A stretch of 64,000 nt of DNA from an uncultured delta proteobacterium. GTDB taxonomy: Bacteria > Desulfobacterota > Desulfobacteria > Desulfobacterales > Desulfosalsimonadaceae. Each line of letters opens with the position of its first letter. Positions within the stretch are counted from its first letter, which is position 1. The notes under the pieces were generated by a model that worked only from the letters and a program-made list of their open reading frames with translations, did not search any database and had not been told where the DNA came from. The stretch lies in contig CAWGYD010000001.1 in NCBI GenBank assembly GCA_963826785.1, positions 768,001 through 832,000 on the forward strand, in the 5' to 3' direction. This document shows, piece after piece, positions 16,160 to 39,443 of the stretch. The position numbers and the translations under genes are program-made.

Positions 16160-16382
16160 CCGTTTCTCCTTCGTTGTCTTCGCAAAATATACTGTCTTTG
16201 AACTCACATAAACACTTCACCCGCAATCCCATTTGAATCCTCCGGGGCGGGAAATACATTTTTGAATTTTTGGAGGAGTCGTGTAAGGTGATCATGCGAT
16301 GTGTTCTTCGGTTGCTTTTGCAAATTCAATTTAGCAGAATCCGGCCGCGCGTTCAACAATGCCTTATTGAATATTAAAATAG

Positions 16383-19003: not shown

Positions 19004-19027
19004 TTTCTGCCACGGAAGGAAGATAAA

Positions 19028-20926
19028 ATGAATCCGAGCACAGCATTGAAGATCGACACCCGGCGCCTGAATTCTGCCGAGGATGTAAACGCGCTGAGAC
19101 AACAGATTCTTGGAAGCCGGGACCCGGACCGGCTCGAAATCGTTGTCTGCCATGGAACCGGGTGCATGGCCAACGGCAGCGCCAGGGTGGCCCGCTCCTT
19201 AAAAACCGCCCTGGAAGCCGCGGGAATCGATGCCAAAGTCATGCCGGGAATCAAGACCACCGGCTGCCAGGGGTTCTGCTCCCGCGGGCCGCTGGTGCTG
19301 ATCAAGCCGAAAGGCTTGTTTTATCAGCGCGTAAAGCCCGAGGATGCCGAGGAAATCGTCGCAAAAACCATTGTGGAAAATGAAACAATCAAACGGCTGC
19401 TGTACAAGGACCCCCATACGGGCGACACCATCGAGACCGAGCAGGAGATCCCGTTCTATCATCTCCAGGAGCGGATTGTATTGCATAACATCGGCAAGAT
19501 CGATCCCACCGATATCGAGGATACCATCGCCGCCGGTGGATACCAGGCACTGGCCAAAGCCCTGTCCGCGATGACACCGGAACAGGTGGTGGCGGAAATT
19601 GAAAAATCGGGCCTCCGGGGCCGGGGCGGCGCGGGTTTTCCCACCGGCCGCAAATGGCGCGGAGCGCTTGCGGCCGTGAAGAAAAAGGGGCGGCCCGTGT
19701 ATGTGGTGGTCAACGGGGACGAGGGGGATCCGGGCGCCTTCATGGACCGCACCATCATGGAAGGCGACCCCCATGCCGTGCTCGAAGGCCTGATTCTGGG
19801 CGCCTATGCCCTGGGCGCCGAAAAAGGGTATCTCTATGTGCGGGCGGAATACCCGCTGGCCATCAAGCATCTGGAGATGGCCATGGCCCAGGCCCGGGCA
19901 TACGGACTGCTGGGAGAAAACATATTAAATTCCGGGTTTTCCTTCGATGCCCAGATCAACCGCGGGGCCGGCGCTTTTGTGTGCGGTGAATCCACCGCCC
20001 TGTTTACTTCCATCGAAGGAAAACCCGGCAATCCGAGACCCAAATATGTGCGCTCCGTGGAAGAGGGCCTCTGGGGCCGGCCCACGGTGCTCAATAACGT
20101 GGAAACCTGGGCCAATGTCCCCCTCATCATCGACAGGGGCGCGGACTGGTATTCCGGCCTGGGCGTGTCCACCTCCACCGGCACCAAGGTCTTTTCCCTG
20201 GTGGGCAAGGTCAACAACGTCGGCCTGGTGGAAGTGCCCATGGGAACGCCCCTGGGTAAAATCGTGGAAGATATCGGCGGTGGGCTGCCTTCCGGCAAAC
20301 CGTTCAAGGCGGTGCAGACCGGCGGCCCTTCCGGCGGATGCATCCCCTATGATTTGAAGGATCTGCCCGTTGATTTCGATTCCCTCACCAATGCCGGTTC
20401 CATGATGGGCTCGGGCGCCATGATCGTCATGGATGACCGGGACTGTGTTGTGGACGTGGCCCGCTATTTTCTGCGGTTTCTGGAGGAGGAATCCTGCGGC
20501 AAGTGCCTTCCCTGCCGTTTGGGGCTTACCCGGATGCGGGAAATCCTGGACAATTTTTCACATGGCTGCGGCAGCGAGCAGGACATCGACGACCTGACCA
20601 GCCTGGCCCAGGCCGTTCAGGATGGGGCGCTGTGCGCCCTGGGCAGCAGTGCGCCCAACCCCTGTCTCACCACCATCAAGTTCTTCAAGGACGAATATAT
20701 CGCCCATGTGCAGGATCATAAATGCCCGGCCGGCGTCTGCAAGGATTTGATTACCTACAGCATCGATCCCGAGGCCTGCACCGGATGCCGCAGCTGCGCG
20801 CGCCAGTGCCCCCAGGGATGCATCAGCGGTGAAAAGAAAAAGCCGCATCAGATCGATGCGGATCAGTGCATCCGGTGCGGCATCTGCATGGAAAGCTGCA
20901 AGTTCGACGCTGTGCGCGTAATTTAG
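19028..20926 (+). CDS. NuoF/HydB-like FMN/NADH-binding subunit with thioredoxin-like 2Fe-2S and C-terminal 2x4Fe-4S
   Basis: GLRGRGGAGFPTG, NGDEGDPGAFMDR, GAFVCGES, ESCGKCLPCR. Confidence 0.95.
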   Translation: MNPSTALKIDTRRLNSAEDVNALRQQILGSRDPDRLEIVVCHGTGCMANGSARVARSLKTALEAAGIDAKVMPGIKTTGCQGFCSRGPLVLIKPKGLFYQRVKPEDAEEIVAKTIVENETIKRLLYKDPHTGDTIETEQEIPFYHLQERIVLHNIGKIDPTDIEDTIAAGGYQALAKALSAMTPEQVVAEIEKSGLRGRGGAGFPTGRKWRGALAAVKKKGRPVYVVVNGDEGDPGAFMDRTIMEGDPHAVLEGLILGAYALGAEKGYLYVRAEYPLAIKHLEMAMAQARAYGLLGENILNSGFSFDAQINRGAGAFVCGESTALFTSIEGKPGNPRPKYVRSVEEGLWGRPTVLNNVETWANVPLIIDRGADWYSGLGVSTSTGTKVFSLVGKVNNVGLVEVPMGTPLGKIVEDIGGGLPSGKPFKAVQTGGPSGGCIPYDLKDLPVDFDSLTNAGSMMGSGAMIVMDDRDCVVDVARYFLRFLEEESCGKCLPCRLGLTRMREILDNFSHGCGSEQDIDDLTSLAQAVQDGALCALGSSAPNPCLTTIKFFKDEYIAHVQDHKCPAGVCKDLITYSIDPEACTGCRSCARQCPQGCISGEKKKPHQIDADQCIRCGICMESCKFDAVRVI

Positions 20927-20956
20927 GAACCTCAACAGAACGGGAGATCTATCAAA

Positions 20957-21562
20957 ATGATCAAATTCCATATCAACGGATCTGAAGTCGAAGCGGAACC
21001 GGGCTGGACGGTGCTCGAAACTGCGCGCCATTACGGGATTGAAATCCCCACGCTCTGTTACCATGAAGCGGTGTCCGCCAGCGGCGCCTGCCGGCTCTGC
21101 ATGGTGGAACTCAGAGAAGGCAAATGGTCGAAGCTGGTGGCGTCCTGTATCTACCCGGTCAAGGACGGCATCGAGATCCACACGGAAACCGAGCGTGTCA
21201 GCAACGTCCGCCGCTGGATATTCGAAATGCTGCTGGCCCAGTGCCCGGCAAGCCCTGAAATCCGGGAGATGGCCAAAAAATACGGCGTGGTGTCCACCCG
21301 CTTTTCGGCGAACAACCCGGATGAGGACTGCATGGTCTGCGGTCTGTGCACCCGGGCCTGCGAGGAAATCGTGGGCCTGTCCGCCATTTCCGTCATGGAC
21401 CGGGGCGTGTACAAAAAAATCGGTGCGCCCTTTTCAAGGCCCACTGAGATCTGCGTGGCCTGCGGCTGCTGCGTGACCATCTGCCCCACCGGCGCCATGC
21501 GCCGGCTGATCGAGTCGGTCCGTGAAACCCCGGCCGTTAAACTGACCCCTTTGGCCCTGTAA
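20957..21562 (+). CDS. NuoG N-terminal-like Fe-S protein (no catalytic domain)
   Basis: IPTLCYH, GACRLCMVE, CMVCGLCTRAC, CVACGCCVTICP; only 201 aa. Confidence 0.9.
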   Translation: MIKFHINGSEVEAEPGWTVLETARHYGIEIPTLCYHEAVSASGACRLCMVELREGKWSKLVASCIYPVKDGIEIHTETERVSNVRRWIFEMLLAQCPASPEIREMAKKYGVVSTRFSANNPDEDCMVCGLCTRACEEIVGLSAISVMDRGVYKKIGAPFSRPTEICVACGCCVTICPTGAMRRLIESVRETPAVKLTPLAL

Positions 21563-21576
21563 ATAAGGAGAGAGCC

Positions 21577-24012
21577 ATGAGCAATCCCAGAATCGGCGTA
21601 TTTTTGTGCAGATGCGGAGAAAAGATCGAACCCTTGGTCGATCTGGCCGCATTCAAGGAAAAAGTGAAAAAAGATCCGGCGGTCGCCTGCTGCGACATCC
21701 TGCCGTATCCCTGCCTGGAACCCGGCATGGACCACATATTGAAGCAGATCCGGGAAAAGGGCATCAACCGGCTCATCGTGGCCGGGTGTGAAAACCGGCT
21801 GATGCTGAAAAAATTCGAGCGGAAAATGGAACCGGAAGGAATCAAAAAAGGGCAGGTGGATGTGATCAATATCCGGGGCCATGTGGCCGCGGTCAGCGAT
21901 GAAACCCCGGCCCGGAAAGCGGAGAAGGGCGCCAAGCTGGTCCTCGCCTCGGTGGCTGAAATGGCCGCCATGCAGCCGAGCATCCAGAAATCCGTTTCCG
22001 TAACTTATCCGCCCCTCATCGTGGGCGGCGGCATCGCCTCGTTCAGCGCGGCCCAGGAACTGGTCCGCCAGGGGATCGACTGCCTGATCTCAGTTGAAGA
22101 AACAGATCCGGAGGTCATCCTTCAGAATCTGTACAGGACCTATCCAGGGGAGCGCATCAATTACGGCCGTTTGAAGAGCCTGATCTCTACTGTGGTTGAA
22201 AATCCCCATGTCACCATCCTTCCGCCGGGGCAGCTGTCCGGGCTGGCCGGAGTGACCGGGGACTATGCCCTCACCTTTTCGGATGCAGAGACCATGACCG
22301 GCCGGACATACAGGGCCGGCACCGTTATCGCCTGTCTGGACGGCGAATTGTCGTCTCCCGGCCCGGAATTTGGATATGACGGAAAGACGGTGGTGTGCCA
22401 GACAGAGTTTGAACACAGGGTTTTCAATCAGCAGCTTCCCGAAGGAAACACGGTTTTCTGGATCAATGACTACGAGCACGGCCAGCCGGAAAACGCCCAG
22501 CTTTCGGGCCGGACCGCCTGGAACATCGGGAGGCACATCCTGGAAAATTCACCCAAAGCCCGGGTGGTCATTTTGTACAACGAGCAGATGGCCCTTCCCA
22601 TCAGCACGGCGGAGCGCAACATCAGCCGAAAACTCGGGATGATCTGGGTTCCCTATGATAAGTCGGTCCAGCCGATCCTCCAGGCCGGGTTTATCAATTT
22701 CGGGGGCATCAACGATCACCTGGAGCATGAGCTGCCCTGGGATCACCTGGTGCTCTCCCCCGTGCGCAAGATCGGCCCCGCGGCCATGAAGACGGCCCGG
22801 ATACTGGGCATCGTCCATGAGGACAGCCAGTTTCTGGGCATCCACCATGCCCGGGTGCGGCCGGAAATGGTCGGCCGCGAAGAAACCTACCTGGCCGGCA
22901 GTGCCCGGTATGCCTGTGATCTGACCGATGCGCTCGGCCAGGGGAGAAAAGCCGGAAAAAAGAACGCGGAAATGATCGAAAAATCGAAAGCCGGCAATTT
23001 ATTTGCGCCCCGGGTGGTGTGCGTGGTGGATACGGACAAGTGCGTGGGGTGCGGACAGTGCCAGGAGCTGTGCGACTGCGGCGGCATCGGCGTGGCCGAA
23101 GGGAACGGCGGCGGCCTGCCCCGGGTTGTGGACCCCATGGTCTGCACCGGCGGGGGCACCTGCGCGGCGGCCTGCCCGTACAATGCCCTGACGCTTCAAA
23201 ACAATACCAATGACCAGCGGGAAGCCCGGGTGGCCGCCCTGGCCAGGCAGATGGCCGATGATGAGTTCGTGGCCTTTGCCTGCTCCTGGGCGGGACTCCC
23301 GGCGGCGGACAATGCCGGAAACCGGGGCATGAAATACAACCCCCGGATTCACATGATCGGGGTGCCCTGCCTGGGGCAGATCGATCCGAGCGTCATGGCA
23401 CGGGCTTTTGTGGAAGGAGCACCGGGGCTGCTGCTGGTGGGGTGCGTACCCGAGGACTGCCATCATTCCTTTGGCATCGACCATGCCTGGAGCCGGGTCA
23501 ACCTGATGAAAAAGCTTTTCCTTTTGTGCGGGTTTGACCGGAACCGGATCACCATCGCCCATGCCGACCTGAACCAGCCGGAGGAATTCATCAAGACCGT
23601 GGACAGCTTTTCCAAGATGATCACCGCCCTGGGGCCCATTGAAAAATCTCCGGCCAATCAGGAGAAGCTGGAAAGCATCTACCGTCTGGTCAAATACAAC
23701 TCGCGCATCCGCCTGCTGCTTTCCGCCGGACTGCGGCGGCCCTGGGAGAATACCTACCGGGGGGATCAGCGGTTTGCGCTGCAGTACGACCGGGAGGATT
23801 TCATCACCGCAGTCAAGGAGGAACTGGTCAAGTCCCGCCTGGAAGGGATCTTCCTGACATCGAAAACGCAGCCATTCGACATTGATCACCTGAAGGAACT
23901 CATCTGCGAAGAAAAGCAGCAGGTGCTTTCACAGCTGTCGGAAATGGTCTCGGAAGGCACGATCAGCGTCCGATATCAGAAGGGCAAACCCTACTACCTG
24001 TGGCCCAATTAG
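21577..24012 (+). CDS. HdrA-like/MvhD fusion protein with C-terminal helical extension
   Basis: RIGVFLCRCG, IVAGC, IVGGGIA, two 4Fe-4S motifs, MvhD motifs FACSWAG/VPCLG/GCVPEDCHH. Confidence 0.85.
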   Translation: MSNPRIGVFLCRCGEKIEPLVDLAAFKEKVKKDPAVACCDILPYPCLEPGMDHILKQIREKGINRLIVAGCENRLMLKKFERKMEPEGIKKGQVDVINIRGHVAAVSDETPARKAEKGAKLVLASVAEMAAMQPSIQKSVSVTYPPLIVGGGIASFSAAQELVRQGIDCLISVEETDPEVILQNLYRTYPGERINYGRLKSLISTVVENPHVTILPPGQLSGLAGVTGDYALTFSDAETMTGRTYRAGTVIACLDGELSSPGPEFGYDGKTVVCQTEFEHRVFNQQLPEGNTVFWINDYEHGQPENAQLSGRTAWNIGRHILENSPKARVVILYNEQMALPISTAERNISRKLGMIWVPYDKSVQPILQAGFINFGGINDHLEHELPWDHLVLSPVRKIGPAAMKTARILGIVHEDSQFLGIHHARVRPEMVGREETYLAGSARYACDLTDALGQGRKAGKKNAEMIEKSKAGNLFAPRVVCVVDTDKCVGCGQCQELCDCGGIGVAEGNGGGLPRVVDPMVCTGGGTCAAACPYNALTLQNNTNDQREARVAALARQMADDEFVAFACSWAGLPAADNAGNRGMKYNPRIHMIGVPCLGQIDPSVMARAFVEGAPGLLLVGCVPEDCHHSFGIDHAWSRVNLMKKLFLLCGFDRNRITIAHADLNQPEEFIKTVDSFSKMITALGPIEKSPANQEKLESIYRLVKYNSRIRLLLSAGLRRPWENTYRGDQRFALQYDREDFITAVKEELVKSRLEGIFLTSKTQPFDIDHLKELICEEKQQVLSQLSEMVSEGTISVRYQKGKPYYLWPN

Positions 24013-24904: not shown

Positions 24905-26494
24905 ATGAAGAGGAGAAAACATCTGGTGGGTTTGGCCTGTATGTTATCGATTGCCAGTGTCGGTATTTTTTGTACCCACCTGTACGGGGTGCAGCAGAAT
25001 TTGACGGATTCTGCCCGGTCCCGTACCGACCTGATCAAAATTGACGGCATGAGTGCTTTCGGCCCGCTTGAAAAATCGCCTGTCGAATTTCTCCATGACG
25101 CGCACACCAAAGCCCTGTCCGGGAAGAACAAGGACTGCAGCGTCTGCCACCTGAAAGACAATGAGGGCATGTCCGTAAAGTTCCTGCGAATCAAGGATAC
25201 GGACCGGATCGAGGTGATGAACGTTTACCATAAAGGATGCATTTCCTGCCACGGGGAAATGAAACTGGCCAACGAGAAGGCCGGGCCCACCGAATGCGAT
25301 GAATGTCATCGGGACAAATCAGAATATTCATCCGCGCAGCAACCCATGGGTTTTGATAAATCCCTGCACTTTCGCCACGTGGAGGCACAGCAGAAGAAAT
25401 GTGAACGGTGCCATCACGAGTACGATGAAAAGCAGAAAAAGCTTTTTTACGCCAAGGGAAAAGAAGGGACCTGCCGCTACTGCCATCTGCCGGAAACCCG
25501 AGACAATGTTATCTCCATGCGCCTGGCATCCCATACGGCCTGCGTCAACTGCCACAGCAAAAATATTTCGCAGAATCTGAGCAGCGGCCCGGTAACGTGC
25601 GCGGGGTGCCATGATCGGGCGGCCCAGGCAAAAATCAAAAAAATATCTCCCGTGCCGAGAATGGATCGAAACCAGCCGGATATGGTCTTGATCAAGACGC
25701 AGGCGAAAGCGGCGGCTGCCGATGTCAATCAAGAGCCAAACCGGATGAAATTCGTTCCTTTTGATCACAAATTGCACGAACAATATAACGAAACCTGCCG
25801 GGTCTGCCACCATGAAAGCCTGCAGCCGTGCAATGAATGCCATACCCTTGCCGGAAAAAAGGAGGGCGAGGGCGTCAATCTCGAAAATGCCATGCATCGG
25901 GTTGACGCATCAGAAAGCTGCATGGGATGCCATGAGATCCGGCAGGCATCGCAGGACTGCGCGGGCTGCCATGCCCCCATGGGCAGGACCCGCGTAAAAG
26001 AAGACGATTCCTGCCAAAGCTGCCACATGATGCCGGTGCCTGAAACGAAACAGGGGATGAGCCCCGATCAGGAAAAATTGCTGGCATCGGCAATGCTGAA
26101 GAACAGAAAACCGGTAAGCGGCACATACCCGGAAAATGATATACCGGAAAAGGTGACCGTCGGGCATCTTTCCAAAGAATATGAACCGGTTGAGTTTCCG
26201 CACCGCAAAATCGTTCATGCCCTTGCCGAAAGAATCAAGGATGACAAGCTGGCCGGCTATTTTCACAGCGGGGAAGGGACCCTCTGCAAGGGATGCCACC
26301 ATCACAGCCCGGCCGCCAAAAAGCCGCCGCAATGCAGAAGTTGTCATGGCCAGTCCTTTGATGAAACCAATCCGTTAAAACCCGGGATCATGGGCGCCTA
26401 TCACCAGCAGTGCATGGGTTGCCACCAGGAGATGGGCATCAAAAAACCCGCCGGGTGCACTGAATGCCATCAAAAAAAGACGAATCAATTGTAG
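24905..26494 (+). CDS. hmcA: high-molecular-weight 16-haem cytochrome c
   Basis: 16 CxxCH motifs counted; signal peptide; c3-type FxH motifs. Confidence 0.93.
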   Translation: MKRRKHLVGLACMLSIASVGIFCTHLYGVQQNLTDSARSRTDLIKIDGMSAFGPLEKSPVEFLHDAHTKALSGKNKDCSVCHLKDNEGMSVKFLRIKDTDRIEVMNVYHKGCISCHGEMKLANEKAGPTECDECHRDKSEYSSAQQPMGFDKSLHFRHVEAQQKKCERCHHEYDEKQKKLFYAKGKEGTCRYCHLPETRDNVISMRLASHTACVNCHSKNISQNLSSGPVTCAGCHDRAAQAKIKKISPVPRMDRNQPDMVLIKTQAKAAAADVNQEPNRMKFVPFDHKLHEQYNETCRVCHHESLQPCNECHTLAGKKEGEGVNLENAMHRVDASESCMGCHEIRQASQDCAGCHAPMGRTRVKEDDSCQSCHMMPVPETKQGMSPDQEKLLASAMLKNRKPVSGTYPENDIPEKVTVGHLSKEYEPVEFPHRKIVHALAERIKDDKLAGYFHSGEGTLCKGCHHHSPAAKKPPQCRSCHGQSFDETNPLKPGIMGAYHQQCMGCHQEMGIKKPAGCTECHQKKTNQL

Positions 26495-26509
26495 GCTGAG
26501 GTATTTCGT

Positions 26510-27550
26510 ATGTCCATATCACGAAGAAAGTTTCTATGGTGGATCGGCGCAGCGGGCCTGGGAACCACCGTGGGCAAATCGGCGATTGCCGGCGGCAATA
26601 AACATTTCGAGGGATACCCCGACAGTTTCGGCGTTCTGCACGACATCACCCAGTGCGTCGGATGCCGGAGCTGCGAGGCGGCCTGTGCCCGGGTCAATGA
26701 CCTCCCCACGCCGGACAGGCCGTTTACGGATCTTTCCGTTCTCAAGGAGAAAAGAAGAACAACGGCTTCTTCCTATACAGTGGTCAATAAATTTGAAGTC
26801 CCGGGTCAAAAATCACCTCTGTTTGTCAAAAAGCAGTGCAATCACTGCCTGGAGCCCGCATGTGCATCGGCATGTTTTGTGAGGGCTTTTCAAAAAACGG
26901 AAACCGGGGCGGTCACCTATGATCCCGGCGTATGCGTAGGGTGCCGGTACTGCATGATTGCCTGCCCGTTCGAGATCCCGACCTATGAATATGATGAGGC
27001 GTTTTCCCCCCGGGTCATGAAATGCACCATGTGCTATCCCCGGGTGATCAAGGGGGAGCTTCCCGCATGTGTCGCGGCCTGCCCGAAAGAGGCGCTTACC
27101 TTCGGACGGCGGGAAGATCTGATCACCATCGCCCGGTCCCGGATCCGCAAATACCCGGACAGGTATGTCGATCACATCTACGGCGAAACCGAAATGGGCG
27201 GGACCAGCTGGCTGTATCTTTCGAGCGTGCCGTTTTCTCAAATCGGCATGCGCGAGGACCTGGGCATTACGCCGGCGCCCGAACTGACGTCCGGCGCGCT
27301 GTCGGCGGTTCCCGTGGTGGTCGGGCTGTGGCCGGTCCTGTTGATGGGATTGTTCGCCGTGTCCAAACGCAAGGAGAGCATTGCGCGGCAGGAAGTTGCC
27401 GAGGCGGTCCGGGCGGCTTCCGAAGATGCAGATTTAAAACTGGAAAAAGCCCTGGCAGATGCCGAACGCGAAAAAGCGGCGGCGGTTGAAAAAGCGGTTA
27501 AAAACGCACTTGGAAAAGATGACCGGCCCCGGAACAAGGAGGAAAACTGA
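26510..27550 (+). CDS. hmcB: Hmc Fe-S subunit (Tat-exported, NrfC/HybA-like)
   Basis: SRRKFL Tat motif; [37 protein letters not shown]-terminal TM. Confidence 0.9.
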
Positions 27551-28722
27551 TGTCCGACAGCTCTGCCCTGGCGGCCAGATCATGGCTGACCCCTTTTAAT
27601 ATCGTGGCCGGCGCCATCATCATCCTGGGGATGATTCTCACCGTCATGAGATTCACCATGGGATTGGGGGCGGTCACCCATCTGTCCAATGACAACCCCT
27701 GGGGAATATGGATCGGGTTTGATCTGATGGTGGGCGTGGCGCTGGCGGCCGGCGGCTACGTCACATCGGCGGCCGTCTACCTTCTGGGAATGAAAAAATA
27801 TCACAGCGCGGTGCGGCCGGCGGTGCTGACGGGGTTTCTCGGTTATTCCCTGGTGGTGTTCGCGTTGACCTACGATGTGGGGCGGCCGTGGCGTCTGCCG
27901 TATCCATTTCTCGTACAGCAGGGGACCACCTCCTTTTTGTTTGAAGTGGCCCTGTGTGTTGCGCTCTACCTGACGGTTTTGTTCCTCGAGTTCATGCCGG
28001 CTCCCCTGGAATGGCTGGGCCTGAAAAAAGTAAGACAACTTGCCGTCCGGCTGACGCTGGCGCTGACGGTTTTAGGGGTTGTGCTTTCCACCCTCCATCA
28101 GTCTTCCCTGGGCGCCCTTTTCCTGATCGCGCCGTCAAAGCTTCACCCCCTGTGGTACTCGCCCTACCTGCCCGTATTTTTCTTCATCTCCAGCATCATC
28201 GCCGGATTGTCCATGGTGATCTTCGAGAGCACGCTTTCACATCGGTATTTCGCGGACAAAATGGATGCGGCGCATGAAAAGGAACATGAAGGCGTGACTC
28301 TTGGTTTCGGAAAAGCCGCGTCTTTGGTGCTTGCCGGCTACTTTTCCATAAAGGTGATGGGGATTGCCGGTTCAAATACCTGGAACCTGCTGACCACCCC
28401 CTATGGGCTCTGGTTTCTGGTCGAGTTGATGGGGTTCGTGGCCCTGCCTTCATTTTTGTATGCGGTCGGGGTTCGAAACCGGGATATTAAACTGATAAAA
28501 TGGACCGCCGCCTGGACGGTGCTCGGCATTGTCGTCAACCGGCTCAATGTCAGTCTGATTGCGTTCAACTGGCAGCTTCCGGCCAGCCAGCGATATTTCC
28601 CCAGCTGGATGGAAATCGCCACCTCGGTTTTTATCGTCACCGTCGGCATCGTTGTTTTCCGGTTTATCGTGACGCGAATGCCGATTTTCTATGCGCACCC
28701 GGATTACAAGGATACCCACTAG
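27550..28722 (+). CDS. hmcC: Hmc integral membrane subunit (NrfD/HybB family)
   Basis: PWGIWIGFD, DVGRPWR, LSTLHQSSLG, ~10 TM. Confidence 0.9.
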   Translation: MSDSSALAARSWLTPFNIVAGAIIILGMILTVMRFTMGLGAVTHLSNDNPWGIWIGFDLMVGVALAAGGYVTSAAVYLLGMKKYHSAVRPAVLTGFLGYSLVVFALTYDVGRPWRLPYPFLVQQGTTSFLFEVALCVALYLTVLFLEFMPAPLEWLGLKKVRQLAVRLTLALTVLGVVLSTLHQSSLGALFLIAPSKLHPLWYSPYLPVFFFISSIIAGLSMVIFESTLSHRYFADKMDAAHEKEHEGVTLGFGKAASLVLAGYFSIKVMGIAGSNTWNLLTTPYGLWFLVELMGFVALPSFLYAVGVRNRDIKLIKWTAAWTVLGIVVNRLNVSLIAFNWQLPASQRYFPSWMEIATSVFIVTVGIVVFRFIVTRMPIFYAHPDYKDTH

Positions 28723-28788
28723 CCGCATGGGCGAGGAAACCGGAAGGGGCAAGGCACCCAAAAAAGAATTCAAGGAGTCATTTTTCTG

Positions 28789-28929
28789 ATGGAAACCGTT
28801 TATTTCACTTCTCAGGACTTTTATACCCATACCAAAGGGGTTCTGTATCTGTTGATGTTTGCGGCTGTGATCGGGACTGCATTTTTCTGGAAATTCCTGT
28901 CCGGAAAGGATGACGAGGAAGCATCTTGA
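28789..28929 (+). CDS. hmcD: small single-TM Hmc subunit (46 aa; not in ORF track)
   Basis: METVYFTSQDFYTHTKGVLYLLMFAAVIGTAFFWKFLSGKDDEEAS; AGGAG upstream; position between hmcC and hmcE-like gene. Confidence 0.8.
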   Translation: METVYFTSQDFYTHTKGVLYLLMFAAVIGTAFFWKFLSGKDDEEAS

Positions 28930-28988
28930 ACCCGCATAAACGCAATCTGTCCGCTCACGGAAAAGGAATCTAAAAGGAAATCCGACAC

Positions 28989-30500
28989 ATGTTTTACAAC
29001 GTCATCCTGTACATGGCCCTGGCCGTTTTCGGGGTTGGTCTGATCTATAAAATTTCAGGCTGGTTCCGTTTCAGCATCGGTGTCAACCCCTGGAACGAAA
29101 ACAGGCCGGCAAGGTTTCGGACCGCCCTGAAAGGCATGCTGTCGGCCGTCTTCAGTAAAAAAGGCAAGGTGCTGGTCCGGGTGTTTATCACGGACGTGCT
29201 GCTGCAGCTGCAGATACTGAGAAAAAGCAGGCTGCGCTGGCTCATGCACATGCTCATTTTTGCGCCTTTCCTGTTCCTCTTGTTTACGCATGCCCTGGCC
29301 AAAATCATCCCGGTTTCGTTTTATGGCCGCTATTATCTGAAGCCCAATCCCTTCCTGCTCCTTGCCGGATGCATGATACTGGCCGGGCTGGGCATCGCCC
29401 TATACCGCCGATTCGTTTTGAAAGTGCCGCGGCTTCAGACCCGTTCCATGGATCTTTCCATCATCGTCATACTGGCCGTTATTATCGTTTCCGGCATCGC
29501 CATGGAACTGACCAAGCTCACCTCCTACAACCATTATCAGCCGATCTGGAACATTCATGTCCTGACCTGCTTTTTCGGGCTTGCCTATGTGCCGTTCAGC
29601 AAAATGCTGCATGTGTTCACCACGCCGGCAAGCCTGCTCTCCAATGCCGTCATGGATCAAAACGCCGCTCCGGGCAACATCATGACCCGTCAGGCAATGG
29701 AACTGGACGCCTGCACCCGCTGCAGCACCTGCAGCCTTCAGTGCTCCGTTGCAACTGCCGCCGACAGCATCGGAAACCCGCATATCCTGCCGTCGGAAAG
29801 AATGATGTTTCTGAAGGATTATATCGCGGACAAGCGGATCAGCGCGCGGGGTCTTGCCGCGATTCAGCAGGGAATATACCTCTGCACGAATTGTGATCGC
29901 TGCACCGTGGCCTGTCCTGCGGGAATCAATCTGCGGGACCTGTGGTTCAATGTCCGGGAAGAAATGATTCAGCGCGGGGGGGGCGTTCCCCTGATGCTGA
30001 CGCCCTTTTCGTTTTACCGGGGACTCAAGCAGGACAAACTGGATCGGCAAGCATATGACCATCCGCTGGACATCACAGAAAAAGCCCTGACCGGGCACTT
30101 TGAACTGCTCAACCAGACCGATGCCGTCATCGAGCTGACATCCGCCGGCCGGGAATTCAAGACATCAGCCGGACTTTCGCTCCGGGCACGCACCAGTTCC
30201 TATTGCTTCACCTGTGAAAACTGCTCGACCGTGTGCCCGGTGGTCGGCAATTATGACGACCCGAAGGCGCATCTCGACCTGCTGCCGCACCAGATTATAC
30301 GGTCCCTGGGTTTTGGCCTCAAAGACCTGGCGCTGGGTTCCCGGATGCTGTGGTACTGTCTGACCTGCTACCAGTGCCAGGAGCACTGCCCCCAGGGTGT
30401 GAAAGTGACGGATGTCTTCTATGAACTGAAAAACCTTGCGGTAAAAAAGGCCAATCCTTCCCCCCAGAACATCGCAATGGATGAACGCGCTGTAAATTAG
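28989..30500 (+). CDS. HmcE/NarI-like membrane cytochrome b fused to two HdrC-like 2x[4Fe-4S] modules
   Basis: RWLMH, IHVL, PFSKMLHVF NarI motifs; four CxxCxxCxxxC motifs. Confidence 0.85.
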   Translation: MFYNVILYMALAVFGVGLIYKISGWFRFSIGVNPWNENRPARFRTALKGMLSAVFSKKGKVLVRVFITDVLLQLQILRKSRLRWLMHMLIFAPFLFLLFTHALAKIIPVSFYGRYYLKPNPFLLLAGCMILAGLGIALYRRFVLKVPRLQTRSMDLSIIVILAVIIVSGIAMELTKLTSYNHYQPIWNIHVLTCFFGLAYVPFSKMLHVFTTPASLLSNAVMDQNAAPGNIMTRQAMELDACTRCSTCSLQCSVATAADSIGNPHILPSERMMFLKDYIADKRISARGLAAIQQGIYLCTNCDRCTVACPAGINLRDLWFNVREEMIQRGGGVPLMLTPFSFYRGLKQDKLDRQAYDHPLDITEKALTGHFELLNQTDAVIELTSAGREFKTSAGLSLRARTSSYCFTCENCSTVCPVVGNYDDPKAHLDLLPHQIIRSLGFGLKDLALGSRMLWYCLTCYQCQEHCPQGVKVTDVFYELKNLAVKKANPSPQNIAMDERAVN

Positions 30501-30507
30501 GAACTCG

Positions 30508-31371
30508 ATGATGAAATATGCCTTATTTCTCGGATGTAATATTCCGGTCAGAGTCGCGCAGTATGAACTTTCCGCCAGAGCCGTGTTGAATCATCTCGGC
30601 ATAGAGGCGGCGGATAACGCTGAATTCAAGTGCTGCGGCAATCCCATCCGGAATACGGACAACAAGACATTTGTCCTGATGGCCGCCCGGAATCTTGCGC
30701 TGGCGGAGCAGCAGGGGCTGGAAATGATGGTGCTTTGCAAATGCTGCTACGGCAGCCTGAAAAAAGCGGCCCACCTGATGAATCAAGACCCCGGCCTGAA
30801 AGAAGAAGTCAACGCGGTGCTTGCCCGGGAGGGATTGCAGTACACGGGGGATGCCAGGGTGAAGCATTTCCTTTCCGTCCTGTATCATGACATGGGGTTG
30901 GATGTCATTTCAGAAAAAGTGACCCGGCCCTTCAAAGGGCTGAAGATCGCCACCCATTACGGCTGTCATGCCCTGCGGCCCAGTGATGTCACCGAATTTG
31001 ACGACCCGGTCGCACCGGTATTGTTTGACAAACTGGTCTCCGCCACCGGTGCCCAGAGCATCAACTGGCCCATGAAGCTGGAATGCTGCGGCGCTCCGCT
31101 CACGGGTGTCAATGACCGTCTGGCCATGGATTTGACCGAAAAAAAACTGGCCGATGGAAAACGGGCCGGGGCCGACTTTCTGTGTGTCGCCTGCCCCTAT
31201 TGCCAGATGCAGTTCGACCGGGTCCAGCAAATGATGCCACCTGCCGGTATGGGCCTCGCCAGCATGGTTTTTCCCCAGCTTCTCGGGCTTGCCATGGGCA
31301 TCAGCGGGGATGCCCTGGGGATCGCCATGAACAAAATTAATAACAACAGTATTGAATCCTTTCTGGAGTAA
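30508..31371 (+). CDS. hdrB: heterodisulfide reductase subunit B (CCG domains)
   Basis: [42 protein letters not shown]. Confidence 0.92.
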
Positions 31372-31379
31372 GAGGAAAA

Positions 31380-34300
31380 ATGTCTCAAAAAGAAATTGGC
31401 GCTGTGATGGTTGTCGGCGGCGGCATCGCCGGCATGCAGGCGGCCCTGGATGCGGCTGATTCCGGTTATTACGTCTATCTGGTCGAAAGGTCGTCTTCCA
31501 TCGGCGGGGTGATGTCCCAACTGGACAAGACCTTTCCCACCAATGATTGCGCCATGTGAGTCATCTCGCCCAAACTGGTCGAGGTCGGCCGGCACATCAA
31601 CATCGAGTTAATGACCCTGTCCGAAGTTTCCAGCATTTCCGGCGAACAGGGAAATTTTGCGGTCTCCCTGCGGCAGTATCCCCGCTACGTGGATCTGGAG
31701 AAATGTATCGCCTGCGGGCTGTGTTCGGACAAGTGCCCCAGGCGGGTCAAAAATGAATATGACGGCAGCCTGAGTGAACGCAAGGCCATTTACGTCAAAT
31801 ATGCCCAGGCGGTTCCCCTCAAATACGCCATTGATCCGACCCAGTGCCTTTTTCTGACCAAGGGAAAATGCAAGGCGTGTGAAAAATTCTGCCCCGCCGG
31901 CGCCATTAATTATGACGAGCAGCCCAAAGACATCGACCTGAATGTGGGCGCCGTCATCCTGGCCGGCGGCTGCACCCCGTACGATCCGAAGATGCATGAC
32001 GTCTATGGCTACGGCAAGTCCAAGAACATCGTCACCAGCCTGGAATATGAGCGCATCCTCTCGTCGTCGGGCCCCTATGGCGGGCACCTGGTCCGCCCCT
32101 CGGACAAAAAGGAACCCGAAAAGATCGCATGGCTTCAGTGCATCGGATCAAGAGATGTGCACATCGGCGCCAGGGGATACTGTTCATCGGTCTGCTGCAC
32201 CTATGCCATCAAGGAAGCCATGCTTTCCAAGGAGCACAGCAAAAACCCGCTGGATACGGCTATCTTTTACATGGATATCCGCGCCCATGGAAAAGACTTC
32301 GAGCGATACTACAACCGGGCCCGGGATGAATACGGCGTCCGGTTCGTCAAATCAAAAATCACTCATATTGTTCCGACGGAGGGCGGCGGTCAGCTGATCC
32401 GCTATTTCGATGAATCCGGCAGGCGGGTGGAAGAGGAATTTGACATCGTGGTGCTTTCGGTGGGGCTGGGCGCCAGTGAAGCCGCCGTCGCCCAGGCCCG
32501 GGCCGCTCACATCGGCATGGATGCCTATGGGTTTGTCAAAACCAGCAGCTTTGCCCCCGTCAAGACATCCCGGCCCGGCATCTTCGTCTGCGGCGCTTTC
32601 GAGGCCCCCAAGGATATCCCTTCTTCGGTGATTGAAGCAAGCGCATCCGCCGGAAGCGCCGGAAGCTGCCTGACCAGTGCGCGCTGGTCCCTGACCCGGA
32701 AGAAACAGCCGCCCACAGAACTGGATACGCGCGGCGTCCCCCCCCGGATCGGCGTATTTGTCTGCTGCTGCGGCACCAATATCGCCGGTGTCATCGATGT
32801 GCCGGCGGTGGTTGAATACGCAAAAACCCTGAAAGATGTCGTCTTTACAGAGCAGAACATGTTTTCCTGTTCCCAGGACACCCAGGACAATATGGCCCGG
32901 ATTATCAAGGAGCAGAAATTGAACCGGGTGGTGGTGGCGGCCTGCACCCCTAAAACCCACGAACCGCTTTTCCAGGAGACCCTGATTAATGCCGGCCTGA
33001 ACAAGTATGTTTTTGAGATGGCCAACATCCGGAACCATTGCTCCTGGGTCAATAAAAGCAACCCTGAAACCGCGACCGACAAGGTGAAAGATCTTGTCCG
33101 GATGGCAGTGGCCAAGGTGGGGCTTATGGAGCCCCTCAAGGAAGCCGAACTCCAGATCAATCCGTCGGCCCTGGTCATCGGCGGCGGCATTGCCGGCATC
33201 ACGGCCGCAAAGACCCTTTCCGACCAGGGGTATCACGCGTATCTGGTGGAAAAAAGCGATCGGCTGGGGGGGCAGGCCCTTCAGATTCATGAGACCTGGC
33301 AGGGGGAGAATGTCGCAGAGAATGTAAACCGCATGATCGAGGAGATTTCCGCGGACAGCAACATCGATATTTTCACGAATGCCGAAATCATCGGAACGGA
33401 CGGATTCGTCGGAAACTTCAACACCACCATCCAGATTGCGGACCAAAAAACGGAGCTGCCGCACGGGGTTGCGATCATCGCGTCCGGTGCGGTGGAGTTA
33501 AAGCCGGATCAGTATCTGTACGGCCGGGATGATCGGGTTCTCACCGCACTTGAACTGGACCGCCGGCTCATTGATGATGATCCGGCTCTGTCGAAGAACA
33601 AAACCGCCCTTTTCATTCAGTGCGTCGGGTCCAGAATCCCCGAGCGGCCCTATTGTTCCAAAGTCTGCTGCACCCATTCCATCAAAAACGCCCTTGCGCT
33701 TCGAAAACTCAACCCGGAAATGGATATATACATTCTCTACCGGGATATGCGCGCCTATGGGCTTCGCGAGGACCTGTACCGGGAGGCAAGAGAAAAGGGC
33801 ATCATTTTCATCCGTTATGATGCGGACCCGGGGCTGGATGTTTATCGCGAAGAAGAAGATCTAAAGGTCGCCTTTTCCGACACGGTCCTTCGCCGCAAAC
33901 TGGAGATCAACCCGGATCTGCTGGTGCTGGCCACGGCCATCACACCGCCCATGGAAAATCCGCTCGCGCAGCAGTATAAAGTGACCTTGAACAACGACGG
34001 GTTCTTCATGGAAGCCCATGCCAAACTCAGGCCGGTGGACTGCGCAACCGACGGTATTTTCATCTGCGGACTGGCGCATGCACCCAAGCCGATTGACGAA
34101 TCCGTGGCCCAGGCCATCGCGGCGGCAACCCGGGCGGTGACCCTGCTGGCCCGAAAATCCATTCAGACCAGCGGAAATATCGCCGAAGTGGTCCCGGCGG
34201 CATGCAGCAGCTGCGGGGTCTGCGTTTCACTTTGCCCGTATTCGGCCCCTTCCTTTATCGATCAAAGCGCACGGTTTTTCCCCGGAAAAGCCACCATCAA

Positions 34301-34424
34301 CCCCGTGCTTTGCAAAGGGTGCGGATTGTGCGCGGCCTCCTGCCGCTCCGGCGCCATCCGGCTGAAGGGGTTTGACAATGATCAGATATTCGCGCAGATA
34401 AACGCGCTGACCGAAATCGCATAG
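31380..34424 (+). CDS. hdrA: selenocysteine-containing HdrA-like flavoprotein with two FAD modules (1014 aa, U60)
   Basis: ATG 31380 after GAGG, in frame with 31611 [22 protein letters not shown][TGA 31557-31559]VISPKL; two GGGIAG and two CxGSR..CSxVCC motifs. Confidence 0.92.
31575..31592 (+). promoter_or_regulatory. bacterial SECIS hairpin
   Basis: CTGGTCG-AGGT-CGGCCGG stem-loop with G-containing loop beginning 15 nt after the in-frame TGA. Confidence 0.78.
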
Positions 34425-34520
34425 CACAGCAATATTTTTAAGATTGTTGATAAAGATCACATTTCGCCGTATCGTTGGTAATAGCGGTATCCTGTCATTT
34501 TAAAATGAGCGGAGGGCGTT

Positions 34521-35621
34521 ATGAAAACTTTTTCCGATCTGATCGAGGAAGTTCAAAAACCGGGTCTCTGCCAGCGCTGCGGCGGCTGTGTCGCCTTTTG
34601 CACCGCCATTAATTACGGCGCCCTGGAATTGGATGAAGAAGGCCGGCCCCGGTATAAATCGGCAGAAAAGTGCATCGAAGGCGGTCTGTGCTACTCCATC
34701 TGCCCGGAGACCCATGAGCAGGATGAGGAAATCAAGAAGCTCGTGGGATGGCGTCCGCCCATGGGACGCGTTTTAAACACATTCGTCGCCCGGGCCAACC
34801 AGCCGGCCATTCAGCAGCGGGCCACCGATGGCGGTGTGGTGACCGCCCTGCTGCTCCATTTATATGATAAGGGCGATATTGACGGGGCCATTGTCACCAA
34901 AGAGACCGGATTGTTTCAGCGGTCGCCCTGGGTGGCCTTCTCCCGGGAGGAAATCCTGGAATCCGCCGGGTTCCACTTCGATGCGTCCCACGGCCTGGAG
35001 CTTTTTTCGGAACTGTATTCAACCTATTCCCCTGCATTTGTTAAAGCCGGATATTTAGGCGCAAAACGGCTGGAGCGGGTCGCCTTTGTTGGCTCCCCCT
35101 GCCAGGTAAACGCACTCCGACGAATCCAGGCGCTGAGCCTGGAACCCTCCAATTCCATTACCATCGTCTTCGGGCTCTTCTGTACGGGCAATTTTATCTT
35201 CGGCCCCGAACAACGGCTCCGGCTGGAAGAAATCGGCCGTTTTAACTGGAGCGAGGTCTCACGGATCAATGTGAAGGAAGATTTCATGATCCATCTTCGC
35301 AACGGGGAGGTTCGCCATCTTCCCATTGACCAGCTTGAATTCATGAAACGCCATGCCTGCCATTTCTGCTCCGATTACAGTGCCGAATACGCGGATTTAT
35401 CTTTCGGAGGCCTGGGCTCGCCGGAAGGGTGGACGACCGTTCTTACGCGCACACCCCTGGGGCAAACTGTATTAAACGATGCCCTGGGCGGGGCTGTGGA
35501 AACAATGCACAAGCGCAATCCCCAATTGGCGGCGGCTGCTTTTCAAAAAATCACCGGGCAATCCGAGAAGAAGAAGCAGTCGGCGAAAAACAGCAGGATG
35601 GAGGAAATGCGGCGTCAATAG
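34521..35621 (+). CDS. FrhB/FdhB-family (F420 hydrogenase beta-like) flavoprotein
   Basis: CQRCGGCVAFC, TDGGVVTALL, VGSPCQ, GLFC, CHFCSDYSAEYADLSFGG. Confidence 0.88.
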   Translation: MKTFSDLIEEVQKPGLCQRCGGCVAFCTAINYGALELDEEGRPRYKSAEKCIEGGLCYSICPETHEQDEEIKKLVGWRPPMGRVLNTFVARANQPAIQQRATDGGVVTALLLHLYDKGDIDGAIVTKETGLFQRSPWVAFSREEILESAGFHFDASHGLELFSELYSTYSPAFVKAGYLGAKRLERVAFVGSPCQVNALRRIQALSLEPSNSITIVFGLFCTGNFIFGPEQRLRLEEIGRFNWSEVSRINVKEDFMIHLRNGEVRHLPIDQLEFMKRHACHFCSDYSAEYADLSFGGLGSPEGWTTVLTRTPLGQTVLNDALGGAVETMHKRNPQLAAAAFQKITGQSEKKKQSAKNSRMEEMRRQ

Positions 35622-35750: not shown

Positions 35751-36665
35751 ATGTTCAGCAAAATTCTGTTTGCCACCAACGCATCCCCCACATGCGACGA
35801 GGCGGCCCGGGTGGCTTTTGATCTGGCCAGAAAATACGGGTCAAAACTTGTCCTGTTTCATGTCATGGGGATTCCCACCCGCGGGTTCAGCCCGTTTATC
35901 AAGGACATCCGCACGGGTGAGGAAGAAACCTACGATCAGGACTACACCGCCTGGGTGGTGGAAGAAATGGAAACCACCTATGCAAAGCAGCTGGCCGAGT
36001 GCAGGGATTTCAAGATCATCACCCGGATCGGCCAGCCGCACACGGAAATTTTACGGCTGTCCCGGGAGGAGGATGTCGACCTGATCGTCATGGGGGCGCA
36101 TTCCCGGTCGGAAAAGACAGGGGAGGCAAGCTACCGGGGAATGGCGGGCAATACCATGCGGAAGGTGACCAAATTCGCCAAGTGCCCCGTATTTATCATC
36201 AGCAGGCCTTGCATGACCTGTTTCTGTTATTTTTCCAATATCGTATTCGGAACCGATTTTTCAAAGGCATCTGACGCAGCATTTCTTTTTGCACGCAAGA
36301 CGGCGCTGGAAATCGGCTGCCGGTTGTTTTTGTTTCACGCCCTGGATGTAAATCCATTCAATCCGATCCGGATGATGCGCCAGGAGGAAATCGAAAAAGC
36401 ACTGGAGACGGCCCGAAAGAAAATCACGCATCGGTATGTGTCCAAAATGGATGGCTTCGACAACTACCAGGTGGATGTCCTGGAGGGAATACCCCATGTG
36501 GAAATCATCAAATATGCCAGGGAGAAGAAGGCCGATCTGATTGTCATGGCCCATCATGCCCGGGACATCGATCCGGAAGAAGCCGAACTGGGAAGTACGG
36601 TGGAACAGGTGGTGCTCAGAGCCTCCTGCCCGGTGGCCAGCGTGAACCGCCCGGATAAAATTTAG
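35751..36665 (+). CDS. tandem universal stress protein (2 UspA domains)
   Basis: KILFAT..DLIVMGAH..CPV and NIVFGTDFS..DLIVMAH..LGSTVEQVV..CPV. Confidence 0.9.
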   Translation: MFSKILFATNASPTCDEAARVAFDLARKYGSKLVLFHVMGIPTRGFSPFIKDIRTGEEETYDQDYTAWVVEEMETTYAKQLAECRDFKIITRIGQPHTEILRLSREEDVDLIVMGAHSRSEKTGEASYRGMAGNTMRKVTKFAKCPVFIISRPCMTCFCYFSNIVFGTDFSKASDAAFLFARKTALEIGCRLFLFHALDVNPFNPIRMMRQEEIEKALETARKKITHRYVSKMDGFDNYQVDVLEGIPHVEIIKYAREKKADLIVMAHHARDIDPEEAELGSTVEQVVLRASCPVASVNRPDKI

Positions 36666-37838: not shown

Positions 37839-39443
37839 ATGAACGACCCATCTGTTAATTATGAAGTTGAAACGCCGATCAGTTTTCTGGAACGCAGTGT
37901 GCAGGTGTATCCGGAGAAGACCGCCGTTGTTTACAATGAGAAACGATACAGCTACCAGGAATTTAACAACCGGATCAATCAGCTGGCCAGCGCATTGAAG
38001 AAAGCGGGGGTTGGCAGAGGAGACAAGGTTGCGTTTATCTGTCCCAACACCCCGCCTCTTTTAGAAGCCCATTACGCGGTGCCGCTCATCGGGGCCGCCC
38101 TGGTCAGCGTGAACATACGGCTCAGCCAGGGGGAAGTCGCCTACATCCTGGAGCATTCGGACAGCAAAATCGTTTTTGTCGACAATGAGTTCGCGCCCGT
38201 CGTACAGCCTTCCCTGGATCAACTCCACAAGGTCGAAGCCTTTGTCAACATATGCGACCAGTCCCCGGACCGCCCGCTTCCCGGCATGGAATATGAAGAG
38301 TTCCTCCTTACCGGTGACACCGCCCCAGTTGAGAGGGAAATAGACGATGAACGGGGGGTGATCACCATCAATTACACCAGCGGGACCACCGGTATGCCCA
38401 AGGGGGTCATGTACCATCACCGGGGCGCCTATCTCACGGCGATAGACGATGCCCTGGAAACGCTGATGTCCTATGAGTCGGTCTACCTGTGGACTCTGCC
38501 GATGTTTCACTGCAACGGCTGGTGCTTTACCTGGGGCGTGACCGCGGTCGGGGGCACCCATGTCTGTCTTCGAAAAGTCGATCCGGCGGAGATTTTCAAA
38601 CTCGTCGAAAGGGAAAAGGTGACCCACATGTGCGGCGCCCCGATCGTTTTGATCGGCATGGCCGATTACGCCAAGAACCATGAAGTCAAGCTGGAAAAGC
38701 CGCTGAAGATCGTCACCGGCGGTGCCCCGCCGTCACCCTCCATTATCGAGGCGATGGAATCGCTGGGGGCGCGGATTACCCATGTCTACGGTCTGACCGA
38801 GGTGTACGGCCCCAACACCATTTGCGCCTGGAACTCGGAATGGGACAACCTTTCCGCCGAAGCGCAGGCGAAGCTGAGATCGCGGCAGGGCGTACCCTAT
38901 ATCGTTTCGAAGAACATGGATGTCGTCCATCAGGAAACCATGGAACCGGTGCCCAAAGACGGGAAAACCATCGGTGAAATCGTCATGAAAGGCAATCTCG
39001 TGATGCTCGGGTATTACAAAGACCCCGAAGCAACCGAAAAAGCATTTCGCGGCGGATGGTTTCACACGGGCGACCTCGCGGTGACGCACCCGGACAATTA
39101 CATTCAGATCATGGACCGGGAAAAGGACATCATCATCAGCGGCGGCGAAAATATTTCCAGCGTAGAGGTGGAAAACACCCTGTACAAGCATCCGGATGTT
39201 CTGGAAGTGGCCGTGGTGGCCACCGCGGATCCGAAATGGGGGGAAGTGCCCAAGGCCTTCATCACCCTGAGGGCGGGCAGCAGCGCCACCGAAGAAGAGA
39301 TCATTTCATTTTGCAAGCAGCACCTCGCCCGATTCAAGGCGCCCAAGAAGATCGAGTTTACCGCGCTGCCCAAGACGGCGACCGGCAAGATCCAGAAATA
39401 CGTGCTCCGGCAGCAGGAGCGGGAGAAAAGTAAACAAAATTAG
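37839..39443 (+). CDS. acyl-CoA synthetase (AMP-forming)
   Basis: YTSGTTGMPKG, YGLTE, FHTGDL, PKTATGKIQK. Confidence 0.95.
   Translation: MNDPSVNYEVETPISFLERSVQVYPEKTAVVYNEKRYSYQEFNNRINQLASALKKAGVGRGDKVAFICPNTPPLLEAHYAVPLIGAALVSVNIRLSQGEVAYILEHSDSKIVFVDNEFAPVVQPSLDQLHKVEAFVNICDQSPDRPLPGMEYEEFLLTGDTAPVEREIDDERGVITINYTSGTTGMPKGVMYHHRGAYLTAIDDALETLMSYESVYLWTLPMFHCNGWCFTWGVTAVGGTHVCLRKVDPAEIFKLVEREKVTHMCGAPIVLIGMADYAKNHEVKLEKPLKIVTGGAPPSPSIIEAMESLGARITHVYGLTEVYGPNTICAWNSEWDNLSAEAQAKLRSRQGVPYIVSKNMDVVHQETMEPVPKDGKTIGEIVMKGNLVMLGYYKDPEATEKAFRGGWFHTGDLAVTHPDNYIQIMDREKDIIISGGENISSVEVENTLYKHPDVLEVAVVATADPKWGEVPKAFITLRAGSSATEEEIISFCKQHLARFKAPKKIEFTALPKTATGKIQKYVLRQQEREKSKQN

Follow-up and report, generated by a model that had tools for sequence, protein, structure and literature searches.

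A conserved hybrid of the hmcABCD module with a membrane-anchored hdrBA operon in an uncultured Desulfosalsimonadaceae bacterium and its relatives

In a stretch of 64,000 nucleotides from an uncultured delta proteobacterium of the family Desulfosalsimonadaceae (contig CAWGYD010000001.1 of assembly GCA_963826785.1, positions 768,001-832,000; this whole stretch is called the window below), we identified an operon in which the hmcABCD genes are followed by the gene of a membrane anchor protein and by hdrB and hdrA. The host genome is 88% complete. Eight co-directional genes on the + strand (24905-35621) make up the operon, namely hmcABCD, the anchor gene, hdrB, hdrA and a gene for an FrhB-like protein, separated in this order by gaps of 15, -1, 66, 59, 7, 8 and 96 bases. 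The first gene, hmcA (24905-26494), encodes a periplasmic 16-haem cytochrome c of 529 residues, which has 16 CxxCH motifs and scores 626 bits with NF045713 (cut-off 400). It is followed by hmcB (26510-27550; NF045715, 529 bits, cut-off 420), whose iron-sulfur (Fe-S) product has four cluster motifs, a twin-arginine leader (SRRKF) and one C-terminal membrane helix at residues 266-284; by hmcC (27550-28722; NF045714, 679 bits, cut-off 550), encoding an integral membrane subunit of the NrfD family; and by hmcD (28789-28929; NF045712, 54 bits, cut-off 34), an open reading frame for a single-helix subunit of 46 residues. All four exceed the NCBIfam cut-offs, as expected from the first-pass annotation of this DNA, which had named them hmcABCD. 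The anchor (28989-30500) has 503 residues and fuses a cytochrome b domain of the NarI/EMO type to two HdrC-like modules with four CxxCxxCxxxC motifs. HdrB (30508-31371) matches PF02754 twice and has two complete CCG motifs, HdrA (31380-34424) has 1014 residues, two thioredoxin-reductase-like flavin domains with two GxGxxG motifs and a selenocysteine (Sec) codon at position 60, and the last gene (34521-35621; PF04422 and PF04432) encodes an FrhB/FpoF-like flavoprotein, an optional module. The separate HdrB, the double-flavin selenoprotein HdrA, the FrhB-like gene and the short gaps on one strand were all found as first annotated.

The anchor had been described in that annotation as HmcE fused to two HdrC modules. 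The two HdrC-like modules and their four Fe-S motifs are present, but the membrane domain is not that of HmcE: its score with the HmcE profile is 22.9 bits against a cut-off of 275, its identity to the HmcE of this same genome is only 23.6% (E-value 0.001), and an HmcE orthologue or fusion was rejected. The strong matches in 60 related genomes are mostly proteins of about 590 residues, which align with the anchor in two pieces (anchor residues 1-185 and 186-490). The gap between these pieces corresponds to an 87-residue insert with an invariant CxxCH in the long anchors, absent from the window anchor after residue 185, which we place between helices IV and V on the periplasmic side, on the basis of the positive-inside charge pattern and the predicted helices. 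The membrane domain has five helices, the long forms carry PF02665 (51 of 51), and anchor residues 404-491 match the solved HdrC. Four histidines, H87, H101, H190 and H208, are invariant in all 103 distinct anchors that we collected, and their spacing of 14 and 18 is that of H87/A101 and H233/H251 in SaEMO; since the haem ligands of EMO are spaced in this way, each anchor is predicted to bind two b haems. The structural comparison rests on a model of the long form (mean predicted local distance difference test score, pLDDT, 81), for which the best fold match is EtfD (PDB 9ojn; Z 23.8, root-mean-square deviation 4.0, 341 aligned residues). The model of the window's own short anchor is poor (mean pLDDT 55), and nothing matched its fold at E 0.001, though NarI and EtfD ranked first. 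We assign the anchor to the EMO/EtfD/HdrF type and trace it to a separate membrane hdrCBA operon. A further variant of 717 residues (L048:830-2983) has the haem-c anchor, only two Fe-S motifs and a different C-terminus, and lies between glycine-cleavage-H-like genes.

The presence or absence of the haem-c insert separates the anchors into two sets that differ in their gene neighbourhood. In a sample of 401 genomes of the order, 14 continuous anchor matches, in which the insert is absent, were found in 13 genomes of nine families, and all 13 of those outside the window, once fetched, proved to be immediately preceded by hmc genes. Scanning GTDB genomes gave 391 anchor relatives, and among the best 80 of these there were 27 full-length short forms, every one of them linked to hmc, plus two more truncated by contig ends. 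After removal of proteins shorter than 450 residues and of 10 duplicate rows, 103 distinct anchors remained, 32 short and 71 long. The haem-c domain is absent from all 32 short anchors, all of which are hmc-linked, and present in all 71 long ones, none of which is hmc-linked (48 of the 71 have at least 1 kb of upstream DNA). The deletion borders are identical in all 32 short anchors. In the converse check, the best 30 of 243 HmcC matches had the canonical hmcE behind them in 29 cases, the remaining one being cut off. This coupled loss of the haem-c domain with hmc linkage argues for a functional link, and the 16-haem module likely replaced the haem c built into the anchor. The synteny of hmcA, hdrB and hdrA was checked as well, and the proposal that the hmc core is joined to Hdr as a unit was borne out, with hmcABCD-anchor-hdrB-hdrA kept in 32 distinct loci.

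In phylogenetic trees, with the insert columns removed, the short anchors form one clade nested among the long forms (FastTree support 1.0). The HdrB proteins of the hybrids also form one clade (30 of 30, support 0.999), as do their HdrA proteins (27 of 27, support 1.0), both nested among unlinked forms. Because anchor, HdrB and HdrA each form a single clade, the hybrid reads as one ancient graft that several families and orders have retained; the short form is taken as derived on the basis of a midpoint root, an HdrA outgroup and the broader distribution of long anchors. Most named relatives belong to the Desulfobacterales, hybrids also occur in Desulfocapsaceae and Syntrophobacteraceae, and no short-anchor hybrid besides that of this genome was found in a phylum sample of 401 genomes. 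Among hybrids the anchors have diverged to 56-73% identity. The hybrid HmcC sequences separate in the tree from 31 canonical HmcC, and a recent copy of the host's canonical hmc was rejected as the source, the two HmcC types being 69% identical and separate in the tree.

The long anchors start an operon of their own, anchor-hdrB-hdrA, often continued by flxDCBA-like genes, dsrC and ahbA, with a divergent miaA upstream (the names flxD, flxC, flxB and flxA are given from gene order and family matches, not from a curated profile). The hdrB gene adjoins the anchor in 67 of 71 long forms, as it does in 31 of 31 related hybrids, and dsrC ends the operon in 12 of the 71 long-form loci. A match to the anchor membrane domain was found in 162 of the 401 genomes of the order and in 49 of the 401 of the phylum sample, both counts including this genome. 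In the host itself, C8:37511-46597 holds miaA, hdrA(Sec), flxD(Sec), flxC, flxB, flxA, dsrC and ahbA with neither anchor nor hdrB, a remnant of the parent locus in which the Flx-HdrA has no adjacent HdrBC. In two other loci (L043, L046) the long anchor and hdrB come after a large hdrA, mvhD, a molybdopterin-type gene of 680 residues and an FdhB/FlxC-like gene.

Among the hybrids, hmcA, the short anchor and hdrB are constant in all 31 relatives of the window locus, and hdrA in 28 of 31, that is, wherever the contig reaches. The distance from the last hmc gene to the anchor is -4 to 175 bases in these 31 relatives. The middle of the hmc part varies more: hmcD is missing in L057, L059 and L079, L062 (2696-4842) and L087 have divergent hmcB/hmcC genes with 46-47% identity on a long branch, which suggests a later replacement of the quinone module, and in L061 and L085 hmcA stands alone directly before the anchor with no hmcBCD, both genomes holding a second hmcA. 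In three genomes that are 99% complete (G217, G370 and G208), no hmcA other than that of the hybrid was found, and no HmcF scored above the cut-off. After hdrA, the 32 hybrids have an FrhB-like gene (6), flxDCBA (10), neither (13) or a contig end (3), and one of them, L054, has the entire tail of the parent (hmcABCD-anchor-hdrBA-flxDCBA-dsrC-ahbA). L074, from a record titled Desulfobacterium sp. N47, shares the gene order of the window locus, frhB included. The flanking genes have been freely exchanged among hybrid loci while the hmc-anchor junction was kept. In Desulfocapsaceae hybrids (L090-L096, L142), a conserved ferritin/rubrerythrin-like gene of about 158 residues follows flxA in 6 of 8 loci, and a similar gene lies between hdrA and flxD in L062.

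In HdrB, all ten CCG cysteines are kept in 30 of 30 hybrids, and the cysteine of the T/GECGH motif, which is common to DsrK, HmcF and TmcB (PMC10861901), is lacking. The hdrA gene has one in-frame TGA (codon 60, 31557-31559), and the 85 related genes where the motif was found have either TGA (72) or a Cys codon (13) in this column. Selenocysteine at this position is supported by this alternation of TGA with Cys codons and by a tRNA-Sec in the host genome; the column aligns with C197 of the solved HdrA (5odc). The double-flavin HdrA had been expected to bifurcate electrons, and the sequence signature fits this at one site of the two. The equivalents of E356/K409 mark bifurcating flavins (PMC9430772), and by this criterion they are found, as E224/K278, only in the first flavin domain, where they are kept in 27 of 27 hybrid HdrA and which also holds an inserted ferredoxin domain; the signature is absent from the second, which has D727/K769 (D727 in 25 of 27). 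One HdrA flavin, the first, is therefore predicted to bifurcate.

The FrhB-like protein has the FrhB fold with an N-terminal ferredoxin domain and resembles F420-binding subunits. It had been included in the proposed unit, but follows hdrA in only 6 of 32 hybrids, so we rejected it as a core subunit and consider it optional. No gene for the F420 ligase (PF01996) was found in this 88% complete genome by a search that did return hits in three archaeal controls, other F420 genes not having been searched. At residues 48-62 a second cluster motif has Gly in place of one Cys in this protein and in those of L052 and L055, and Cys in five others.

The host is of the sulfate-reducer type, since it carries dsrA, dsrC, qmoC and dsrO; it also has DsrMKJOP, Qrc-like and canonical Hmc loci. 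Two features that define HmcABCDEF, a separate HmcE of about 226 residues and an HmcF with one CCG motif and T/GECGH (the latter from PMC10861901), are lacking in the operon of the window. A canonical hmcABCDEF is present at C4:433352-439891, its HmcF having a TECGH motif and one CCG. The flxABCD genes are absent from the window and found at C8 behind another hdrA. A search of this genome for a periplasmic-type NiFe hydrogenase found none, the sole match lying within an hdr-mvh cluster. In an hdrA-mvhD-hdrC/B-frhB-mvhG-mvhA cluster at C4:346862-355400, the start of hdrA is fused to a helix-turn-helix-like N-terminus, and the frhB paralogue, 56% identical, changes frame near 352760. Elsewhere (C1:511140-525436), a nitrate-reductase-like narGHJI run is accompanied by a Sec formate-dehydrogenase-like gene with an apparent frame change close to its start.

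Upstream of the operon, across a gap of 892 bases, lies a set of nuoE, nuoF, nuoG(N) and a degenerate hdrA-mvhD fusion (18539-24012, + strand, identified by family matches), which sits behind a sigma-54 activator (16383-18110). We infer that this set is separate from the operon and a candidate input of reduced nicotinamide adenine dinucleotide (NADH) in trans. In the fusion protein (21577-24012), the HdrA part is degenerate, with 24% identity to the second half of the operon HdrA, and the cysteines of the flavin-domain cluster are absent. The same nuo/hdrA-mvhD neighbours occur in the hybrid L084 and in the unlinked loci L033, L034, L039 and L044. Both these and the FdhB-like neighbours are ordinary, as nuoEFG-mvhD-hdrA clusters (PMC4046663) and FdhB-like genes in hdr loci (PMC2702500) were already known. 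Downstream, a universal stress protein gene (35751-36665, + strand, PF00582) is possibly the last gene of the operon and a recurrent neighbour, with homologues of 48-55% identity directly upstream of hmcA in L084 and L089. A scan for promoters and terminators stayed near the shuffled level (10 against 8.8 and 22 against 16.4), and a sigma-54 pattern search upstream of the window hmcA found none. Two genes further away hint that the electrons may come from fatty-acid oxidation: one (14354-16207, - strand) is acyl-CoA dehydrogenase-like, a family name read from the sequence, and the other (37839-39443) is acyl-CoA ligase-like.

We favour, at about even odds, the reading that the hybrid forms a single transmembrane wire connecting the HdrA flavin with the cytochrome pool of the periplasm, on the basis of the match of the deletion with hmc linkage, the single origin and the conserved cofactor ligands. 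On the simplest reading, the parent complex would already have connected HdrABC with the periplasm by its own haem c, a task that would have passed to HmcA(BCD) once this domain disappeared. Electrons would enter at the first HdrA flavin from a partner that oxidises NADH; in 10 of 32 hybrids the candidate is FlxDCBA, and in this host it may be the FrhB-like protein, the NuoEFG/HdrA-MvhD set upstream, or the FlxDCBA of another locus. The flavin would split the electron pair and send one electron to ferredoxin via the inserted ferredoxin domain. The other would pass to the doubled HdrC, a putative hub between HdrA, HdrB and the membrane haems, and from there either to the non-cubane clusters of HdrB and a disulfide, likely that of DsrC, or through the extra HdrC module and the two b haems to HmcA, directly or via menaquinone, HmcC and HmcB. 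The DsrC chemistry, also part of the first-pass annotation, is plausible to the extent that the parent operon often ends in dsrC (12 of 71 loci). In this host the net flow is most likely outward, and the membrane arm would serve as an additional sink of high potential: genetic data suggest that canonical Hmc exports electrons (PMC4215793), and no periplasmic-type hydrogenase was found in the host. More tentatively, and with some doubt, the hybrid could be a bifurcating respiratory complex whose high-potential arm ends outside the membrane, in which one HdrA flavin would divide electrons from NADH between ferredoxin and a chain of four Fe-S clusters plus two b haems leading straight to HmcA, with HdrB/DsrC as a switchable side exit. 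If this were true, the exchange of haem c for HmcA would reveal the docking site of HmcA on a membrane anchor.

Several points weigh against the transmembrane wire. The cytoplasmic input is not conserved, with 13 of 32 hybrids having neither flx nor frhB after hdrA, and the operon in the window is without mvhD. A dsrC gene follows in only 1 of 31 related hybrids, and thiol chemistry at HdrB is not assured, since clusters of the HdrB type can act solely as electron relays, as they do in EMO (bioRxiv 10.64898/2026.08.18.745454). With a genome completeness of 88%, the missing periplasmic donors prove little. Finally, all hybrids share one origin, so that the 32 of 32 amount to one evolutionary observation kept over time.

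The same complex could also work mainly inward, which we consider rather unlikely: electrons would then pass from periplasmic cytochromes through HmcA (with HmcBC/menaquinone) and the b haems to a DsrC disulfide at HdrB, with HdrA adding or drawing electrons by confurcation. Inward reduction of DsrC has been proposed for Tmc and shown for DsrMKJOP, which carries menadiol electrons via b haems to a non-cubane cluster and DsrC (PMC10861901), and the two full CCG motifs of HdrB, the dsrC at the end of the parent operon and the unlinked forms in records of EthSRB1 (L109, L119), partners inferred to receive electrons from outside, are all in keeping with it. However, HdrB is without the T/GECGH cysteine that DsrK, HmcF and TmcB share and that the host's own HmcF has, the host already possesses DsrMKJOP, Qrc-like and canonical Hmc loci, and a periplasmic-type hydrogenase was not found in its 88% complete genome.

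Distinctly unlikely, in our judgement, is an arrangement of two half-complexes that share a promoter and the quinone pool and do not bind each other, HmcABC(D) acting as a cytochrome c:menaquinone oxidoreductase and anchor-HdrB-HdrA being, like EMO or EtfABCX, a flavoenzyme linked to menaquinone. HmcC belongs to the NrfD family, proposed to meet menaquinone (PMC4215793), the best structural match of the anchor is EtfD, of a quinone reductase family (bioRxiv 10.64898/2026.08.18.745454), and the loss of hmcD in three loci and the divergent hmcB/hmcC in two others would suit such a loose association, which nevertheless leaves unexplained why the haem-c domain was lost only where hmcA adjoins and why two loci keep hmcA alone beside the anchor. 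A frozen accident, in which the haem-c loop was deleted and hmcABCD brought into the vicinity by a single rearrangement, the modules working independently with no shared electron flow, would fit the single origin and the rarity of the hybrid (13 of 401 genomes of the order, and none besides this genome in the 401 of the phylum sample), but is very improbable given that the junction was kept while the anchors diverged to 56-73% identity, across nine families of the order sample plus Desulfocapsaceae and Syntrophobacteraceae, with the flanks freely exchanged.

The locus is a conserved and apparently undescribed hybrid of two known systems, in which evolution gives an unusually clear signal of a functional link. 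In the parts of the literature available to us (PMC5109826, PMC2702500, PMC10861901, PMC10553843, PMC13490349, PMC13343851, PMC10504309, PMC6491731, PMC3739170, PMC4046663, PMC5539420, PMC4215793, PMC9430772 and bioRxiv 10.64898/2026.08.18.745454) no description of hmc joined to hdrBA, or of the haem-c anchor, was found, an earlier mention in key reviews or supplements being possible. The cytoplasmic partner of Hmc and its direction are long-standing open questions (PMC4215793), and the hybrid ties together in one operon Hmc and Hdr-Flx, the latter described as soluble. It represents a clean domain swap, in which HmcA and the single built-in haem c likely fill the same role, and provides a defined subunit set with which transmembrane coupling of flavin bifurcation could be examined. 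A membrane anchor may also be present in many Desulfobacterales complexes that are annotated as cytoplasmic Flx-Hdr, considering that 162 of 401 genomes of the order match the anchor membrane domain.

The HmcABCDEF complex of sulfate reducers was reportedly described by Rossi in 1993 (as cited in PMC5109826 and PMC10861901). The HmcA, HmcB, HmcC and HmcD of the hybrid are bona fide members of it, and as in the canonical complex a di-haem b anchor and a CCG-type subunit follow; in contrast, the places of HmcE and HmcF are taken by HdrA, an HdrB with two CCG motifs and an anchor of unrelated lineage that has four Fe-S motifs. The FlxABCD-HdrABC (Hdr/flox) system of Desulfovibrio has the order hdrC-hdrB-hdrA-flxDCBA, often with dsrC, which recurs in the parent operon and 10 of 32 hybrids. 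This system has been called soluble or cytoplasmic and proposed to bifurcate electrons from NADH to ferredoxin and DsrC (PMC4215793, PMC5539420, PMC6491731), whereas the hybrid has a doubled HdrC joined to a membrane cytochrome b and an HdrA with two flavin domains, and in the window an FrhB-like gene stands in place of flx. An HdrA with the E/K signature and the inserted ferredoxin domain, an HdrB with two five-Cys CCG motifs and an HdrC domain with two clusters are nevertheless shared with HdrABC and Flx-Hdr. With EMO, EtfD and HdrF (PDB 9ojn; bioRxiv 10.64898/2026.08.18.745454; PMC2702500) the anchor shares a five-helix NarI-type domain followed by an HdrC-like domain, but in the hybrid a separate HdrB with all ten cysteines provides the CCG domain, the anchor has an additional HdrC module, and HdrA takes the place of ETF as partner; moreover, position 101 is His in the anchor and Ala in SaEMO (A101), so that an ordinary two-His distal haem is predicted. 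HotSeep-1 has a different pair, of HdrA with haem c/CCG (PMC10553843). The class II benzoyl-CoA reductase BamB-I and MetVF-HdrABC-MvhD (PMC9430772) resemble the hybrid in their double-flavin HdrA, membrane association and NuoEFG-like neighbours, and differ in that, as described there, they have no identified integral membrane subunit and the Geobacter enzyme has the signature at both flavin sites, compared with one here. In QmoABC, too, an HdrA-type flavoprotein is tied to a membrane cytochrome b/HdrC fusion, but the domain order of the anchor is reversed relative to QmoC, in which the Fe-S part is N-terminal, the QmoC score is 90 against a cut-off of 300, the genome has a separate qmoC of its own, and HdrB is present in the hybrid.

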